From positions 32,001-96,000 of the forward strand of contig CAWJMT010000035.1 of the NCBI GenBank assembly GCA_963844035.1: 64,000 bases of DNA, written 5' to 3'. Shown piece after piece: positions 5,443-60,498 of the stretch. Below the pieces are notes generated by a model that saw only the letters and a program-made list of their open reading frames with translations, had not been told where the DNA came from and ran no database searches. Both the position numbers and the translations under genes were made by a program. How positions within the stretch are numbered: the first letter of the stretch is position 1; the number at the start of each line of letters is the position of its first letter. The DNA is from an uncultured Gemmatimonadales bacterium. Its GTDB lineage: Bacteria > Gemmatimonadota > Gemmatimonadetes > Gemmatimonadales > GWC2-71-9.

Positions 5443-6234
5443 TCACGCCGCGCGAAGCAGATCCATCAGCCAGCGATGCAGCGTCGGGTTCCCAGCCACA
5501 ATCGACCCGCCGCCTAACACGTCGGGCTTTCCGTCGAGCGTCGTGATGATCCCTCCCGCCTCGCGGACCAGTACCACGCCCCCTGCGACGTCCCACGGCG
5601 CGAGACTCAACTCCCAAAACGCATCGAGCCGTCCCGCTGCCAGATCCGCGAGATCGAGCGCGGCCGCACCAGCCCGGCGGATCCCGCTCGACGCCCCCAT
5701 GACCGCGGCGAACTGATGGAGATAGCGCTGCAGCGTGTCGAGACGTTTGAACGGAAATCCGGTGCCCACCAACGCATGGCGGGGCTCGTTGACGCTCGAG
5801 ACCGCCAGACGCTGGTCACCCATCCAGGCGCCCAGGCCTCTCCCCCCGCGGCAGCGTCACGTTGCGCGTGACGTCGTGCACCACGCCCACGCACAGGTCA
5901 CCTTCCACCAGGCAGCCGATCGACACCGCGTATTGCGGATAGCCGTGGAGGTAGTTGGTCGGTGCCGTCGAGCGGATCCACCACCCACACGACCTCGCCC
6001 GCCAGCGTGGCGCGCGGCGTGAGCTCCTCCCCCACGACCTTCGAGCCGGGGGACGCGGCGGGCCAGCACCTCGACGATGATCGCTTCCGCCGCGCGGTCG
6101 ACGCCGGTGACGAAGTCGTGCGTGCTCTTCTCCGTCCACTCGTGGCGATCGGGGCGCGGAGCCGCTCGCAAATACGCCCCGGCCCGCTCCGCGGCCTCCA
6201 CCGCCGCATCGACTAAGTCTTTGATTTCTCGCAC
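5443..6234 (-). CDS. suhB: Inositol monophosphatase (several indels)
   Basis: DFVTGVD, VVGEE, WVVDPLDGT, TNYLHGYP, RRAGAAALDL, WDVAGG across three frames. Confidence 0.9.
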
Positions 6235-6273
6235 CTTGCGGCACCCCACCCGAGTCTCGTAGGTTGTCAGCCC

Positions 6274-7272
6274 ATGGCACGCGTCTTCTCCGGCATCCAG
6301 CCCTCTGGTGAGCTGCACATCGGTAACTACCTGGGCGCGGTCCAGAACTGGGTCAAGCTCCAGCAGCAGCACGACTGTCTTTTCAGCGTGGTTGACCAGC
6401 ACGCGATCACACAGGCGTACGATGCCTCATCGCTGTCCCAGCGCACGCTGGAGATGGCGATCGGACTGCTCGGCGCGGGGCTCGACCCGCAGCGTTGCAC
6501 CCTGTTCGTGCAGTCGCACGTCGCGGAGCACACCGAGCTGAACTGGTACCTCAACACCGTGACGCCGCTTGGCGAGCTCGAGCGTCAGACCCAGTTCAAG
6601 GACAAGGCGCAGCGCCAGGAGAGCGTCCCGGCCGGTTTGTTGAACTACCCTGTCCTGCAGGCCGCGGACGTGCTGCTCTACGAAGCCACCCTGGTGCCGG
6701 TCGGTGAGGACCAGGTGCAACACTTGGAGCTGATGCGGGAGATCGCGCGGCGCTGGAACGCTCGCTTCAGCGACGGGACGGGGTTCGCGTTCCCGGAGCC
6801 GCAGGCGCTGCTGACGACCGCCAAACGGGTCCTCGGTCTCAACGGCCAGGCGAAGATGTCGAAGAGCCTCGGCAACACCATCGGCTTGCTCGAGTCGCCC
6901 GAAGCGATCTGGGAGAAGCTCAGGCCCGCGGCGACCGATCCGGCGCGGGTCAAGAAGACGGATCCCGGGAACCCCGACATCTGCAACATCTTTACGATCC
7001 ACCAGGGCTTCTCACCCGCCGACGTACAGAAGACGGTGGCGCATAACTGCCGGACCGCCGGGTGGGGCTGCATCGACTGCAAGCGCGTATTGGCGGATAA
7101 CATGATAGCGGGGCTCACGCCGATCCGCGAGCGGGCAGCGGCGCTGCGCGCCGAGCCGCAGCGAGTCACCGACATCTTGAAGGCGGGAGCGGCGAAAGCG
7201 CGCGCGGTGGCACGGCGGACCTTGACCCAGGTACGGCAGCGGATGGGATTCCTCGAAGGGGCCGAGCCGTAA
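6274..7272 (+). CDS. trpS: Tryptophan--tRNA ligase
   Basis: SGIQPSG, HIGN, VPVGEDQ, KMSKS. Confidence 0.97.
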   Translation: MARVFSGIQPSGELHIGNYLGAVQNWVKLQQQHDCLFSVVDQHAITQAYDASSLSQRTLEMAIGLLGAGLDPQRCTLFVQSHVAEHTELNWYLNTVTPLGELERQTQFKDKAQRQESVPAGLLNYPVLQAADVLLYEATLVPVGEDQVQHLELMREIARRWNARFSDGTGFAFPEPQALLTTAKRVLGLNGQAKMSKSLGNTIGLLESPEAIWEKLRPAATDPARVKKTDPGNPDICNIFTIHQGFSPADVQKTVAHNCRTAGWGCIDCKRVLADNMIAGLTPIRERAAALRAEPQRVTDILKAGAAKARAVARRTLTQVRQRMGFLEGAEP

Positions 7273-12649: not shown

Positions 12650-13654
12650 ATGCTCGACCTGGCGGTGATTGGGGCCGGGCCCTGTGGACTCGCCGCGGGC
12701 GCCGCCGCGAAGCGGGCCGGCTTGCGCGCGGCGGTGTTCGACAAGGGCCCGGTGGTCGCGAGTCTGCTCACCTACCCGCTGTACATGACGTTCTTTTCGA
12801 CCCCGGAGAAGCTCGAAATCGGCGGAGTGCCGTTCGTCACCAGCGGTGACAAGCCGACCCGCCGCGAAGCGCTCACCTACTACCGCAAGGTCGCGGAGTA
12901 TCTGGATCTCGACGTGCGTCAGTATCACGAGATCGTAGGCGTGGTACCTGCGCGCGGGGGCGGGTTCGAGGTCAGCGTTCGTCCTCCGGGGTCGGCCAAC
13001 CCTGAGACGGTGGCGGCGCGGCACGTGGTATTCGCCACCGGCTATTTCGAGTCGCCGAACCTGCTCGGCGTTCCGGGGGAAGATCTCCCGCATGTGTCGC
13101 ATTTCTTCACCGAGGCGCACCCCTACTGGCGGCAGCGGGTCGTCGTGGTTGGCGGTGGAAATAGCGCGGTCGAAGCTGCGCTCGAGCTGCACCGGGTCGG
13201 CGCACTGGTGACCATCGTCCACTTCCTGGGAGACGTGGACAAGGGCGTGAAGCCCTGGGTGCTCCCCGATATCTCGAACCGCCTGAAAGACGGCAGCATC
13301 GCGGGCCGCTGGCGCAGCCGTGTCCAGAAGATCGAACCGGGTCGCGTGGTCATCGCCCGCGACACTGACGGTGCGACCGAGACGCTGCCCGCGGACTTCG
13401 TGCTGGCGCTGACGGGGTACCGCGCCGACCAGCGCTTGCTCAGGATGCTGGGCGTCAGAATCGACTCCACGACTGGCGTGCCCGCCCACGATCCGCTGAC
13501 AATGGAAACGAACGTGCCCGGCGCCTATATCGCCGGTGTGCTGTCGTGCGGGTTCGATGCGAACAGGGTGTTCATCGAGAACGGGCGGGGGCACGGCGAC
13601 CTGATCTGTACCCATATAAAAGCACGACCCCCCAGAGTTGCCCCCGGGGGGTGA
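12650..13654 (+). CDS. ypdA: YpdA-family FAD/NADPH oxidoreductase (putative bacillithiol disulfide reductase)
   Basis: GAGPCGL, YPLYMTFFST, KPTRREALTYY, GGGNSA, VKPWVLPD, FIENGR. Confidence 0.9.
   Translation: MLDLAVIGAGPCGLAAGAAAKRAGLRAAVFDKGPVVASLLTYPLYMTFFSTPEKLEIGGVPFVTSGDKPTRREALTYYRKVAEYLDLDVRQYHEIVGVVPARGGGFEVSVRPPGSANPETVAARHVVFATGYFESPNLLGVPGEDLPHVSHFFTEAHPYWRQRVVVVGGGNSAVEAALELHRVGALVTIVHFLGDVDKGVKPWVLPDISNRLKDGSIAGRWRSRVQKIEPGRVVIARDTDGATETLPADFVLALTGYRADQRLLRMLGVRIDSTTGVPAHDPLTMETNVPGAYIAGVLSCGFDANRVFIENGRGHGDLICTHIKARPPRVAPGG
13617..13653 (-). terminator. Minus-strand hairpin plus U-tract ending the riboswitch transcript
   Basis: Minus strand ACCCCCCGGGG-GCAA-CTCTGGGGGGT then CGTGCTTTT; GNRA loop and G-U pairs work only on the minus strand. 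Confidence 0.6.
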
Positions 13655-13741
13655 TCGCCTGCCCAACATCGTGCGCCCTAGACCCCGATGCGAGCGAGAC
13701 GAAGTTCGTGCTCTTCAAGCGCTCGTATCAGGGCATGCTTC

Positions 13742-13828
13742 AGACTCCGGTAGCCGGGCTATCTCTTCCGAGACCCCTAGCTTTGCGCCCCACCGTTGCC
13801 GGTGGTTTGCCCTGATCAGAGTTCTTCC
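13742..13828 (-). ncRNA. c-di-GMP-I (GEMM) riboswitch
   Basis: Minus strand CAGGGCAAACCACCG-GCAA-CGGTGGGGCGCAAAGCTAGGGGTCT-CGGA-AGAGATAGCCCGGCTACCGG matches the GEMM layout (GGCAAACC, GNRA-capped P2, GCAAAGC junction, P3, UACCG). Confidence 0.88.
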
Positions 13829-13840
13829 GGGGTGGGGTAA

Positions 13841-13856
13841 AGCAAAATCGGTGCCC
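13841..13856 (-). promoter_or_regulatory. sigma54 (-24/-12) promoter upstream of the riboswitch
   Basis: Minus strand GGGCACCGATTTTGCT (GG-N10-GC); predicted +1 about 13830, at the 5' end of the aptamer. Confidence 0.75.
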
Positions 13857-13943
13857 GGGATAGAAGGGTGTTTTTCCGCACGGAAACTCTGTCCCAGTCG
13901 TCACCGTATCGTGCTAAATGCCCGAAACAATGCATAATGCGAC

Positions 13944-15020
13944 ATGTCGTACGTAGTCTTGGCTGCGCCGGCAGCGTTCAAGGGGTCATTCGGCCCAAAG
14001 CAGGTCGCTGACGCCTTCGCCTCGGGCGTTCGCCGCGCGCTTCCCGACGCCACCGTCTTGCAGTGTCCCATATCCGATGGCGGCGACGGGCTGCTCGAGG
14101 CCGTCCTTCCGAGGGAATCGCTGCGGGAGTCGGTCGCCGTCACCGGACCACTAGGGTCCAAGGTGCAGGCGGTGCTTGGTTGGCTCGACAGTGACACCGC
14201 CATTTTCGAGTCTGCCAGTGCCTGCGGGATTGCGCTGCTCAAACCCGACCAACTCGATCCGCTGCACGCGACCACGCGTGGCGTTGGAGAGCTGATCTGG
14301 GAGGCGGTCGACCGCGGGGCGCGCACGGTCGTGGTTGGCCTTGGCGGCTCGGCGACGGTCGACGGCGGCAGTGGGGCCGCGCGGGGTCTCGGGTGGACTC
14401 TGCGGGATCGCGCCGGTGGGTTGCTTCCGGAGGGAGGTGGCTCGCTCGTCGATATCGCCGGCTTGGACGGGGGGTGGCGACTCGAAGCGCAGATCGTGGC
14501 GCTCGCCGACGTGACCACGCCGTTGGTCGGTGCCGCCGGAGCGGCGCGGGTCTTCGGACCGCAAAAGGGGGCCTCGCCGGAAGCCGTCGATCGCCTCGCG
14601 GCAGGGCTCGAGGTGCTCGCCGCGGAATGGGCGCGGCAGGGCCGCCCCGATCTCGGAACGCTGCCGGGCGGTGGTGCCGCCGGCGGCCTGGGCGCCGGGC
14701 TCGCGTTCTTCGGGCGGGCGGAGCTGATCCGCGGCGCCGAGTGGGTGCTCGAGCGGGTGGGATTCGACGCCGCGTTGGCGTCGGCAGACTTGCTGATCAC
14801 GGGCGAGGGCGCGTTCGATCGCACGTCGCTTGTCGGGAAGGCATCGGGCGAAGTGCTGCGGCGCGCGCAGGCGGCGCGGAAGAAAGTGGCGGTGGTGGCC
14901 GGGACCGTCAGCGATCTGATCGGCGTGCACGCGCTCGGAGGCGAGGGCCGGACGCTCGACGCGGCCGGGATCGCCGACCTCGCCGAGCGCGCGACCCGTG
15001 AGGCTTTTGGGTTATCTTAG
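13944..15020 (+). CDS. glxK: Glycerate kinase
   Basis: AFKGS, ISDGGDG, GLGGSATVDGG, FGPQKGA, GAAGGLG, ITGEG. Confidence 0.95.
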   Translation: MSYVVLAAPAAFKGSFGPKQVADAFASGVRRALPDATVLQCPISDGGDGLLEAVLPRESLRESVAVTGPLGSKVQAVLGWLDSDTAIFESASACGIALLKPDQLDPLHATTRGVGELIWEAVDRGARTVVVGLGGSATVDGGSGAARGLGWTLRDRAGGLLPEGGGSLVDIAGLDGGWRLEAQIVALADVTTPLVGAAGAARVFGPQKGASPEAVDRLAAGLEVLAAEWARQGRPDLGTLPGGGAAGGLGAGLAFFGRAELIRGAEWVLERVGFDAALASADLLITGEGAFDRTSLVGKASGEVLRRAQAARKKVAVVAGTVSDLIGVHALGGEGRTLDAAGIADLAERATREAFGLS

Positions 15021-31674: not shown

Positions 31675-33449
31675 TCAGTACCCGACTGCGCCGCCGCCGC
31701 GCCGGGGATCGGCCACGCCGACCCAACCGTCGGCGGTCTTCGCGATCGCATTGACGCCCGTCTTGTAGCGCCACTCGTGGATGGTGTGGCCCATCGCGGT
31801 CAGCGAGTCGAGCGATGCCTTGCACGAACCCGCTCTTGCTCCACGTACAGGAGATCGGGCAGTCCCTGATGATGCAGGCGCGGCGCGGCCACGGCATCGC
31901 GCAACGACATGCCTTGATCGATGACGTTGCTGATCACCTGGTACACTGCCGTCGTGATGCGCGAGCCGCCCGGCGAGCCCAGCACCATGAACAGCGCACC
32001 GGCGGTATCCAGCACGACGGAGGGGGTCATGGCGGAGAGCATGCGCTTTCCGGGCGCGATCGCGTTGGTGGCGCCTTGCACCAGGCCGTACAGGTTGGCC
32101 TTGCCGGGCGCCGTCGTGAAATCGTCCATCTCGTCGTTCAGCAGGAACCCCGCGCCGGTGACCGTGACGGCGCTGCCGAAATCGTTGTTCAGGGTCGTGG
32201 TGCACGACACGGCGTTGTCGTCGGCATCGACCACGGAATAGTGGGTCGTTTCCGTGCCCTCGACGTGGGGCGTCATGCGCGGCGTCGGCGTCGCACGCTG
32301 CAAGTCGATGTCCGCCCGAAGCGTCGCCGCATACTCCTTACTCAGCAGGCGCTCCACCGGGAGTGGCACGACGTCGGGATCCCCCAGGTACAGGTTCCGA
32401 TCGACGAACGCGCGCCGCATCGTCTCCGCCTGGAGGTGCATGAGGGCCGCGCTGCCGAATCGGGGGAGGCTCGGGTAGCCCTCCATCACGTTGAGGATCT
32501 CGGCGAGCGTCACGCCGCCGCCGCTCGGCGGCATGGTGTAGATCGCGTAGCCCCGATACGTGATGTGGATCGGCACCCGCCACTTGGGGTGGTAGCGCGC
32601 CAGATCCTGCTTGGTGATCAGGCCGCCGCCGCGCTGCATCTCCTGCACGATGAGCTTGGCGATGCTGCCGTGGTAGAACGGCTTTGGACCGCTGTCGGCG
32701 ATGAGCTGCAGGGTGGCCCCGAGCTCCCGCTGCACGAACGGCGTCCCGGGGGGCGGCGCGGCGCCATCGAGAAGAAACTGCGCCCGGGAGGCGGGGAAGC
32801 GGGTCAGCCGCTCCAACTCGACGTTGATGTTGCGGCTGCGAATCGCGTCGAGCACGTGGCCGTCGCGCGCGAGCGCGACCGCGGGCGCCACGACGTCGGC
32901 CCACGGCAGCTTGCCGAACTTGCGGTGCGCTTCGAACATGCCGGCCACACTTCCCGGAACCCCCGCCGAGAGGGGCCCGGTGAGCGCCGCCTCCGTCACG
33001 TTGCCGGCCGAGTCCACGTACATGCCGGCGGTCGCGCCTCCGGGGGCGACCTCGCGGTAGTCGAGCGCGTGGACGGTACCGTCGTGCAGGCGGATCACCA
33101 TGAACCCGCCGCCACCGATGTTGCCGGCAATCGGCTGCACCACGGCGAGCGCGAATCCGACCGCCACCGCGGCGTCGACGGCGTTGCCGCCGCGGCGCAG
33201 GATGTCGGCCCCGACGGCGCTGGCGAGCGGATGCGCCGACACCACCATGGCGTGCTGGCCGCTGACCGCGCCGCCCCGATCGGTGAGCGGCCACGTCGGC
33301 CCGATGAGGGGACTGCGGGCCGTGCTCTCGGGCGTCGGCGGTGGTGCCCCGCCGGCGACGGGCTCGGGCGCGGCTGGTGTCGCCGCCGGTCCCTTGGTGC
33401 CGCCGCAGGCCGCGAGCAGTGCGAGCGTAAGTGCGAGGAGTGCGCGCAT
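31675..33449 (-). CDS. ggt: Gamma-glutamyltransferase, lipoprotein (indel near 31830)
   Basis: LAAC lipobox, GGNAVDAAVA, ETTHYSVVD, LNDEMDDF, SAMTP, GSPGGSRI, ADPRRGG. Confidence 0.95.
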
Positions 33450-60296: not shown

Positions 60297-60393
60297 GCCC
60301 CAGGTCCGCAGGTCGTCCGCTCGTGAACCGCGTCAGGCCCCCGCAGGGAGCAGCGCTTAGCGATGTCGGTCGTCGTTGCGGGGTGCCTGGGGC
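60297..60393 (+). ncRNA. ffs: Small SRP RNA (4.5S)
   Basis: GTGAACC-GCGTCAGG-CCC...GGG-AGCAGC core, terminal pairing GCCCCAGG/CCTGGGGC, TATCTT -10 just upstream, position before dnaX. Confidence 0.88.
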
Positions 60394-60498
60394 AATTCTA
60401 GGCGGTCAGACGGTCAGGCGGATCGACGGTAGTGCATCTCGGGAGCTTGACCGTCGGTCCGTTCTACACGGCGACCGCCTTGCATTAGATTGCTCTCA

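Follow-up and report, generated by a model that had tools for sequence, protein, structure and literature searches.

A 64,000-nucleotide (nt) stretch from an uncultured Gemmatimonadales bacterium (hereafter the window; positions 32,001 to 96,000 of contig CAWJMT010000035.1, assembly GCA_963844035.1; unprefixed coordinates refer to the whole stretch) carries, on the minus strand of the gap between ypdA and glxK, an RNA unit headed by a class I riboswitch for cyclic di-GMP (c-di-GMP). An initial annotation had described an orphan riboswitch transcript with no downstream gene; there is indeed no gene behind the aptamer, but it leads a conserved hairpin RNA of ~85 nt. We posit, as a fairly probable reading based on sequence comparison and fold models, that the unit specifies a sigma54-driven, trans-acting small RNA (sRNA), which likely represses an unlinked operon coding for an oxidase and a PAS-domain kinase and is predicted to be switched off by c-di-GMP. 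Sequence and its comparison across relatives provide the anatomy of the unit, covarying stems, three architectures, and a conserved complementarity to positions -20 to -10 before the oxidase gene.

A stand-alone RNA unit with a canonical aptamer

All the features that the initial annotation had placed on the minus strand were recovered there (Table 1), and its description of a stand-alone, sigma54-driven, canonical c-di-GMP-I RNA holds, as does the option of a ligand-gated sRNA that it had raised. The covariance-model check it had proposed returned a score well over the RF01051 cut-off; the aptamer is real, though it does not begin at the transcription start (+1) as annotated, helix P1 starting ~9 nt after it. 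Position A47 has a role in the c-di-GMP-I pocket, and the full pocket G20/A47/C92 is found in the window and in all 85 parsed aptamers, 8 of 93 having resisted parsing. Recognition of c-di-GMP is marked by G20 together with C92, and that of cyclic GMP-AMP (cGAMP) by A20, according to PMC6140456. The G20 and C92 of the window thus agree with the c-di-GMP-selective form named in the initial annotation, and the GEMM-Ib (3'3'-cGAMP) riboswitch, which needs A at position 20, was rejected. The GGC variant RF03167 was the hit listed by cmscan (62.7 versus 59), but its consensus G is an A in the window (A47); hence, by its sequence, the aptamer is of the canonical c-di-GMP-I form, with c-di-GMP as its predicted ligand. 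The usual context of such aptamers, the 5' leader of a protein-coding gene, was not encountered, there being no conserved start or open reading frame (ORF) ahead of the terminator; this is a matter of context and not a property of the aptamer.

The -24/-12 motif, likewise present where first annotated, is conserved in 112 of 113 loci, the remaining one being cut by a contig end. In relatives, the inverted repeat GCA-N3-TGC recurs upstream, near -88 and -68 from the sigma54 motif: at least one site occurs in 100 of 104 upstream regions (shuffles: mean 20, maximum 31), and paired sites 18-22 nt apart in 56 of 104 (shuffles: mean 0.13, maximum 2). The distal copy of the window is the predicted binding site of a sigma54 activator. 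This pair is the conserved element, rather than the TTTCCG-CA-CGGAAA palindrome initially suggested as a regulator site, which is present in one of 112 loci, the window alone. Along with the promoter motif and the upstream activator sites, the genome encodes rpoN (in two frames in the assembly) and 8 strong sigma54-activator domains, and transcription from the predicted promoter is predicted to be sigma54-dependent. The genome also encodes GGDEF proteins.

From the +1 at 13830 to the terminator, the predicted transcript measures about 212 nt; as a predicted RNA of 218 nt, it folds above chance (z -4.3; none of 200 shuffles was as good). Contigs from three of four soil RNA runs cover the unit (13598-13905, 13651-13820 and 13663-13813, with 8, 0 and 4 differences from the window, respectively), two of them lying within the predicted transcript; they are a weak sign of its expression, the runs having been preselected for containing the stretch and the contigs informing on neither strand nor ends. 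Run X17 contained one ypdA piece and aptamer pieces from other organisms, and nothing else; absence of glxK cover is uninformative.

A conserved hairpin RNA with a dispensable riboswitch leader

When 60 relatives were searched at the DNA level, the gap turned up at 13 loci next to glxK. A covariance model matched 25 of 151 genomes of the phylum, with 20 strong matches, all in the family of the window, and 5 weak ones (L059-L063, E values of 1e-4 to 6e-3) that were dropped on inspection as terminator look-alikes. Searching 185,579 species genomes with an exact 21-nt pattern gave 113 matching stretches. The pooled and de-duplicated set comprises 113 distinct loci, with L058, which has another loop, and L055 and L057, which failed the strict pattern, kept outside the counts. 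Among 80 records with the module, 79 are titled Gemmatimonadota and one just 'uncultured bacterium'.

The best-conserved part of the module is its last ~85 nt (13702-13617), consisting of a hairpin (13702-13655), unnoticed in the initial annotation, and then the terminator, whose hairpin (13652-13627) had been correctly placed inside the last codons of ypdA. The covariation in relatives, for which the annotation had called, is evident in 43 hand-picked sequences: 95.6% of cells in the hairpin stem are paired, with two-sided changes in 8 of its 16 pairs, and the terminator stem covaries in 7 of 10 pairs. For both stems together, 96.2% of cells pair and two-sided changes affect 15 of 26 pairs, a level reached by none of 500 shuffles, with slid controls at 40-48%. 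As G-U variants are frequent in these stems, the minus strand is, on this sequence pattern, the functional one, and a plus-strand RNA was rejected. An amber-anticodon or tRNA-like reading of the loop was likewise rejected, in this case on the geometry of the stem. A scan of the gap against Rfam, with E values up to 10, found no family for the hairpin. The same loop sequence recurs in 109 of 113 loci, an invariance largely imposed by the 21-nt search pattern; support independent of the pattern comes from the glxK-side loci of the DNA search and from L055 and L057, in which the stem is changed and the loop kept. With its own promoter and terminator, no ORF, and a conserved seed to which an unlinked mRNA shows conserved complementarity (described below), the module has the attributes of a trans-acting sRNA. 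That it is a real sRNA we have little doubt.

The riboswitch lies upstream of this conserved non-coding domain, on one transcript, in 93 of the 113 loci: 56, including the window, combine the aptamer with a short switch strand, and 37 with a terminator-like hairpin. In a further 19 the promoter leads straight into the hairpin, and one locus is truncated. In a tree of glxK from 83 loci (midpoint root, some nodes weak), the aptamer-less loci resolve into three groups, of which two or more are separate, each embedded among loci that have the aptamer; the window itself branches among relatives of the terminator type and is without the 3' strand of the terminator. The surroundings vary too. Across 86 loci the downstream neighbour is ypdA in 39, purA in 15, a same-strand glxK in 23 (the inverted units) and, in the remaining 9, some other gene or one farther away; glxK is divergent from the unit in 63 of 90 loci. 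Because the unit moves and inverts among its neighbours, and because the aptamer is lost while the hairpin stays, the comparison of sequences identifies the hairpin as the gene and the aptamer as a dispensable leader, which weighs against two further suggestions of the initial annotation taken up below, namely a c-di-GMP sink and an antisense regulator of ypdA.

Three loci outside the counts deserve mention. L058:1501-1584 (G098) has a sigma54 motif, a hairpin and the same type of terminator with another loop, and may be a diverged member, or a paralogue, that acts on other targets. L055:1200-1592 is a distant member with an aptamer and a long platform, in which a sigma54 motif was not evident in the 300 nt inspected. 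L057:1501-1590 is a distant, aptamer-less member with other neighbours.

An unlinked oxidase/kinase operon as the predicted target

A scan of the genome of the window (G000) for complements of the loop found an 11-nt match directly before the Shine-Dalgarno (SD) sequence of a minus-strand gene (G000:C36:97330-98004). As this gene had been picked as the best match, conservation of the site was used as the test. Its product belongs to PF14518, and since its similarity to UndA is remote (E 2e-11) we class it, from sequence, as UndA-like only; UndA itself decarboxylates fatty acids to 1-alkenes. In an alignment to UndA, E85/H88, E144 and H175/D179/H182 match E/H/D positions, which we take to be the di-iron ligand residues. 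A three-His/three-carboxylate (3H/3C) di-iron motif is described in PMC13108848. In all 93 loci the oxidase gene has a PAS-PAS hybrid histidine kinase gene as its neighbour; a divergent PadR gene is present in 86 of 89. In the genome of the window (G000:C36:94400-98800, L177), the oxidase is coupled to the PAS-PAS hybrid kinase, the divergent PadR gene has a conserved operator-like sequence, and a gene for an HD-domain membrane protein lies nearby.

From 100 oxidase loci (20 from genomes and 80 from metagenomes, one being too short) we derived 73 distinct leaders. The duplex of loop and leader has a median energy of -21.9 kcal/mol in these 73; shuffled seeds average -11.4, none of 300 reaching that median, and only 0.3% of 3048 leaders from G000 itself are as strong. 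Each position of the 11-nt site pairs in 62-73 of the 73 leaders, with variable flanks and the same offset in 51 of them, although the table is anchored at the best seed match and kin are not independent. Within the site, a transition that yields a G-U pair is seen in 89 of 511 cells, one that would abolish pairing in 1 of 292. Relative to the oxidase gene, the site extends from -20 to -10, abutting the SD sequence; this span falls inside the ribosome footprint, and repression is therefore the expected effect. The loop contains CUAG, a YUNR motif of the kind that speeds contact between loop and target, which would matter in a cell without Hfq. All 12 oxidase-bearing relatives among 150 genomes of the phylum carry the sRNA. 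On these grounds, pairing of the sRNA with the oxidase leader is in our view very likely.

Predicted gating by c-di-GMP

The candidate switch helix of the initial annotation is borne out insofar as GCCCTGAT (13734-13727) exactly complements ATCAGGGC (13816-13809) and the helix forms in the full-length fold (p ~1.0); the 8-nt match alone, however, is within chance, the pairing of the spacer with the aptamer being equalled by 1349 of 2000 shuffled spacers. Its pairing with the hairpin arm was equalled by 48 of 2000.

For 90 loci out of a set of 93 we modelled folds with the aptamer free and with the aptamer set aside, the latter as a proxy for the bound state. In terminator-type loci the modelled probability of the middle hairpin has a median of 0.15 with the aptamer free versus 1.0 with it set aside, rising by more than 0.3 in 19 of 29. 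In the models of short-strand loci, the strand shifts from the aptamer to the 5' arm and loop of the hairpin, and the cost of opening the seed goes up by more than 1 kcal/mol in 33 of 45 and down in 2. Both aptamer-bearing types, in these models, suggest c-di-GMP as an OFF signal. That the riboswitch gates the sRNA we consider likely, and OFF as the sign of control in the family somewhat less so, if still probable.

In the window, with the aptamer free, GCCCUGAU is predicted to pair with the aptamer 5' strand (p ~1.0). With the aptamer set aside, an alternative 19-bp helix (8+6+5 pairs) with the hairpin 5' arm, at -27 kcal/mol, is the minimum-free-energy structure of the growing chain; at full length it lies 1.2 kcal/mol above the native hairpin. 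This helix destroys the hairpin and leaves most of the seed unpaired, and since, in addition, the modelled cost of opening the seed is equal in both states (4.8/4.8 kcal/mol), the sign of control is less sure in the window than in its relatives; whether c-di-GMP is an OFF signal there is, for us, evenly poised.

We propose the following course of events. An enhancer-binding protein would activate the sigma54 promoter through the paired repeat. At low c-di-GMP, the switch strand would pair back on the aptamer, the hairpin would fold, and its displayed loop would pair with the oxidase leader and block ribosome entry, lowering the translationally coupled kinase as well. At high c-di-GMP, the aptamer would fold first and free the switch strand, which would then form a terminator in 37 relatives and invade the hairpin 5' arm in the 56 window-type loci. 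We incline slightly toward the fuller proposal that this is the first c-di-GMP riboswitch gating a trans-acting pairing sRNA: a single ~210-nt transcript would integrate a sigma54 activator with c-di-GMP, its Hfq-independent loop seed would control the UndA-like oxidase/PAS-kinase operon and a set of envelope genes, and relatives would either switch off likewise, through termination or through strand invasion, or have discarded the riboswitch.

Contrary evidence and alternative explanations

Beyond the limits noted above, several observations weigh against the proposed sRNA, target and sign of control. With regard to the target, no two-sided covariation between sRNA and leader was found, the loop hardly varying; A-to-G changes near the SD sequence have SD strength as a possible alternative cause; and a U-to-G change in the loops of the window and G001 is uncompensated in their targets, leaving the window with 10 pairs. 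A detectable oxidase is missing from 6 of 19 loop-bearing genomes, so that other targets must exist, and no oxidase homologue from a genome lacking the sRNA was found, so there are no such leaders for control. Seed complements are not enriched genome-wide in leaders as delimited by a home-made gene caller. A PF17209 (Hfq) match is absent from G000, which is 84% complete, no search having been made for ProQ or Khp. With regard to gating, the middle hairpin of terminator-type loci forms without ligand in 9 of 29 models and is followed by U tracts of uneven quality (3 to 11 of 12), and the alternative helix of the window accounts for just ~12% at equilibrium, the seed opening more easily inside it (3.2 versus 4.3 kcal/mol).

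This last difference bears on an alternative with the same sRNA and target, in which the derived strand of the window would make c-di-GMP an ON signal or a control of stability, the helix freeing the seed from a collapsed loop. It accords with self-pairing of the window's loop variant, the opening of which costs 4.8 kcal/mol versus 1.9 in most relatives, and with the position of the window, stripped of the 3' strand of the terminator, among terminator-type relatives. However, relatives of both aptamer-bearing types model as OFF, the helix disrupts a hairpin conserved in all of them, and the energy differences are within model error; hence, we consider it unlikely.

A near-invariant loop on a covarying stem would also fit recognition by a protein, as in a decoy of the EutX/Rli55 or CsrB manner, with the leader site kept for some other reason such as cis structure or a protein site. 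The missing Hfq match and the occurrence of the motif within a cis hairpin in another candidate leader (L315) are compatible with this, but the oxidase site is the complement of the loop and not a copy of it, its changes obey G-U rules, and 8 oxidase leader folds that we inspected have no common cis helix, which makes a decoy improbable.

The idea of a stand-alone c-di-GMP sink can point to the intact canonical aptamer, the unit's own promoter and terminator, the lack of an ORF, and a precedent proposed for Bdellovibrio merRNA (PMC3627812). It is very improbable, as 19 of 113 loci, from two or more separately nested clades, are without the aptamer and keep promoter, hairpin and terminator, and as a sink leaves the loop, the target site and the expression platforms unexplained. 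Regulation in cis, be it antisense or 3'-end control of ypdA or a switch for glxK, is still harder to sustain: in its favour are the overlap of the terminator with the final 38 nt on the ypdA side and, in 23 loci, a same-strand glxK downstream, but this overlap is confined to the terminator, the conserved loop lies outside ypdA, ypdA is the convergent neighbour in only 39 of 86 loci, with purA, glxK or another gene otherwise, and the orientation flips. Least credible of all is a short peptide hidden by a frameshift or unusual start: one frame across the hairpin 5' arm does read RLA(R/H)IG(F/V) in several relatives (...RLARIG[V/F], ending at the UAG of the loop), and the GGAG-N8-ATG CCC TGA of the initial annotation is present (13736-13728), but the start lacks conservation, only 2 of the 93 loci with an aptamer having SD plus ATG, three near-identical RNA contigs cross the C-run without the indel that the suggested extra C and 19-residue peptide would need, sequence changes preserve base pairs, and aptamer-less loci leave a leader of <30 nt for a start.

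Relation to known systems

The Vibrio Qrr1-5 RNAs are sigma54-dependent trans-acting sRNAs with a GCA-N3-TGC-like activator site, an intrinsic terminator and pairing next to the SD sequence. The module is like them in all these respects and unlike them in its unrelated sequence (no Rfam match), a seed placed in a hairpin loop, the absence of a detected Hfq, and the extra riboswitch gate. A small upstream RNA is associated with the Vibrio cholerae Vc2 riboswitch. The window's aptamer resembles the Vc2 type of c-di-GMP-I riboswitch (RF01051) in its strong covariance match, A47, GNRA-capped P2, and the G20 and C92 described in PMC6140456; it differs in that its platform addresses a non-coding hairpin, with no protein-coding gene behind.

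Closer in logic are the B12-riboswitch-controlled RNAs Rli55/EutX and AspocR of Listeria and Enterococcus, in which a 5' riboswitch decides on the making of a functional non-coding RNA (PMC8079631 and PMC13501541), ligand-induced termination being the OFF state for AspocR (PMC8079631). The module departs from them in its predicted ligand, c-di-GMP, and its sigma54-type promoter; in a predicted short-seed trans pairing on an unlinked operon, versus binding of an ANTAR protein by Rli55 and the long target overlap of AspocR; in a second, terminator-free control predicted to act by strand invasion; and in the loss of the aptamer in some lineages. Rli55/EutX decoys have ANTAR dual hairpins; in the module a single 14-nt loop precedes the terminator. 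The long antisense overlap of AspocR is not matched at ypdA, which only the terminator overlaps and which varies as a neighbour. Like the merRNA of Bdellovibrio bacteriovorus, the unit stands alone, has a c-di-GMP riboswitch and lacks a conserved ORF; unlike it, a 445-nt RNA proposed as a ligand store (PMC3627812), it has a seed hairpin that outlives the aptamer and a conserved complementary site.

On the side of the target, Pseudomonas undA is reported to lie always beside rbdA, which codes for a modulator of c-di-GMP (PMC10614000). The target here similarly aligns with UndA and precedes a PAS signalling protein, but the Pfam hits of this partner, a PAS-PAS histidine kinase-receiver, include neither GGDEF nor EAL; the Pseudomonas counterpart of the oxidase operon is tied to c-di-GMP by a different route. 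A full-text literature search found no account of the hairpin RNA, nor of any pairing sRNA under the control of a c-di-GMP riboswitch; supplements and most subscription papers lie outside its coverage, and the supplements of RNA-motif surveys may list the motif.

Riboswitch-controlled non-coding RNAs are rare, and the examples compared here use B12 and act through protein binding or long antisense overlap. If our proposal is true, c-di-GMP would reach unlinked genes through a relaying RNA, with the sign of control inverted. Two separate puzzles, a gene-less riboswitch and an UndA-like oxidase/kinase operon, would be joined, and an abundant, barely studied soil phylum would gain a regulatory RNA with a named, directly testable target. 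The three natural architectures offer a ready comparison of the gain, rewiring or loss of a riboswitch before an sRNA.

Other candidate targets

A degenerate pattern of seed, SD and ATG matched 53 of 151 genomes, mostly as coding noise and with no clean split by presence of the sRNA; the oxidase gene was nonetheless among its matches in four genomes, from three genera. A plain count of seeds in five genomes was not above a reversed control. Conservation of candidate sites was followed for L313, L314, L315, L316 and L320. Two were rejected, the site being lost in the one homologue of L313 and kept in none of the 8 homologues of L316. The lipoprotein L314 retains it in 4 of 4 members of the genus and, farther afield, in 3 of 25 homologues whose start was usable, and the secreted protein L315 in 5 of 5, mostly inside a cis hairpin; both are weaker candidates than the oxidase. 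For L320, the site occurs in one of the few readable homologues. Three genes for secreted proteins or lipoproteins of unknown family (G000:C35:108442-109551, C27:52667-53248 and C36:155117-155752) have a seed complement 32-48 nt before the start, and such genes are, from sequence, a possible envelope regulon. On C4, a pilin gene is preceded, 57 nt from its start, by a 7-nt match to the seed.

Features of the locus and other observations

Table 1. Features of the RNA unit and its surroundings in the window
Feature	Coordinates	Strand	Remarks
ypdA-family disulfide reductase	12650..13654	+	TIGR04018, 410.7 bits; convergent neighbour, outside the RNA system
Intrinsic terminator, hairpin 13652-13627 and U-rich tail	13617..13652	-	overlaps last codons of ypdA; tail CGUGCUUUUA
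Conserved sRNA hairpin	13702-13655	-	16-bp stem, 14-nt loop; covariation
Hairpin loop GG(G/U)UCUAGGGCGCA	13685-13672	-	predicted seed 13682-13673
Switch strand (expression platform)	13745-13703	-	13734-13727 pairs with aptamer 5' strand or hairpin 5' arm
c-di-GMP-I (GEMM-I) aptamer	13821-13746	-	RF01051, 65.5 bits against a cut-off of 35; pocket G20/A47/C92
sigma54 -24/-12 motif GG-N10-GC	13856-13841	-	predicts +1 at 13830
TTTCCG-CA-CGGAAA palindrome	13873..13886	.	named in the initial annotation; probably outside the system
Proximal imperfect GCA-N3-TGC copy	13912..13922	-	two mismatches, hence uncounted in the scan; position matches the -68 site of relatives
Distal enhancer-like inverted repeat GCA-N3-TGC	13931..13941	-	86 nt upstream of the -24 element, at the glxK start
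Glycerate kinase glxK	13944..15020	+	TIGR00045; divergent neighbour in the window, downstream neighbour where the unit is inverted

The genome has 9 GEMM-I aptamers, of which 5 carry A20, the cGAMP-type signature (G000:C2:65030, 67735 and 70736; C6:60061 and 62652); most of these precede genes of secreted proteins with Ig-like repeats, and one stands in tandem with a G20 aptamer (C2:70736 and C2:70944). An aptamer closely resembling that of the window lies ahead of a type IV pilin gene (G000:C5:42113-42195, minus strand). Genes split over two frames in the assembly include rpoN, several GGDEF genes and an apparent inositol monophosphatase gene (G000:C3:311852-313274; window 5443-6402), on account of which indels are probably common in it. 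The window also encodes an ordinary bacterial small signal recognition particle (SRP) RNA at 60297-60396 on the plus strand.

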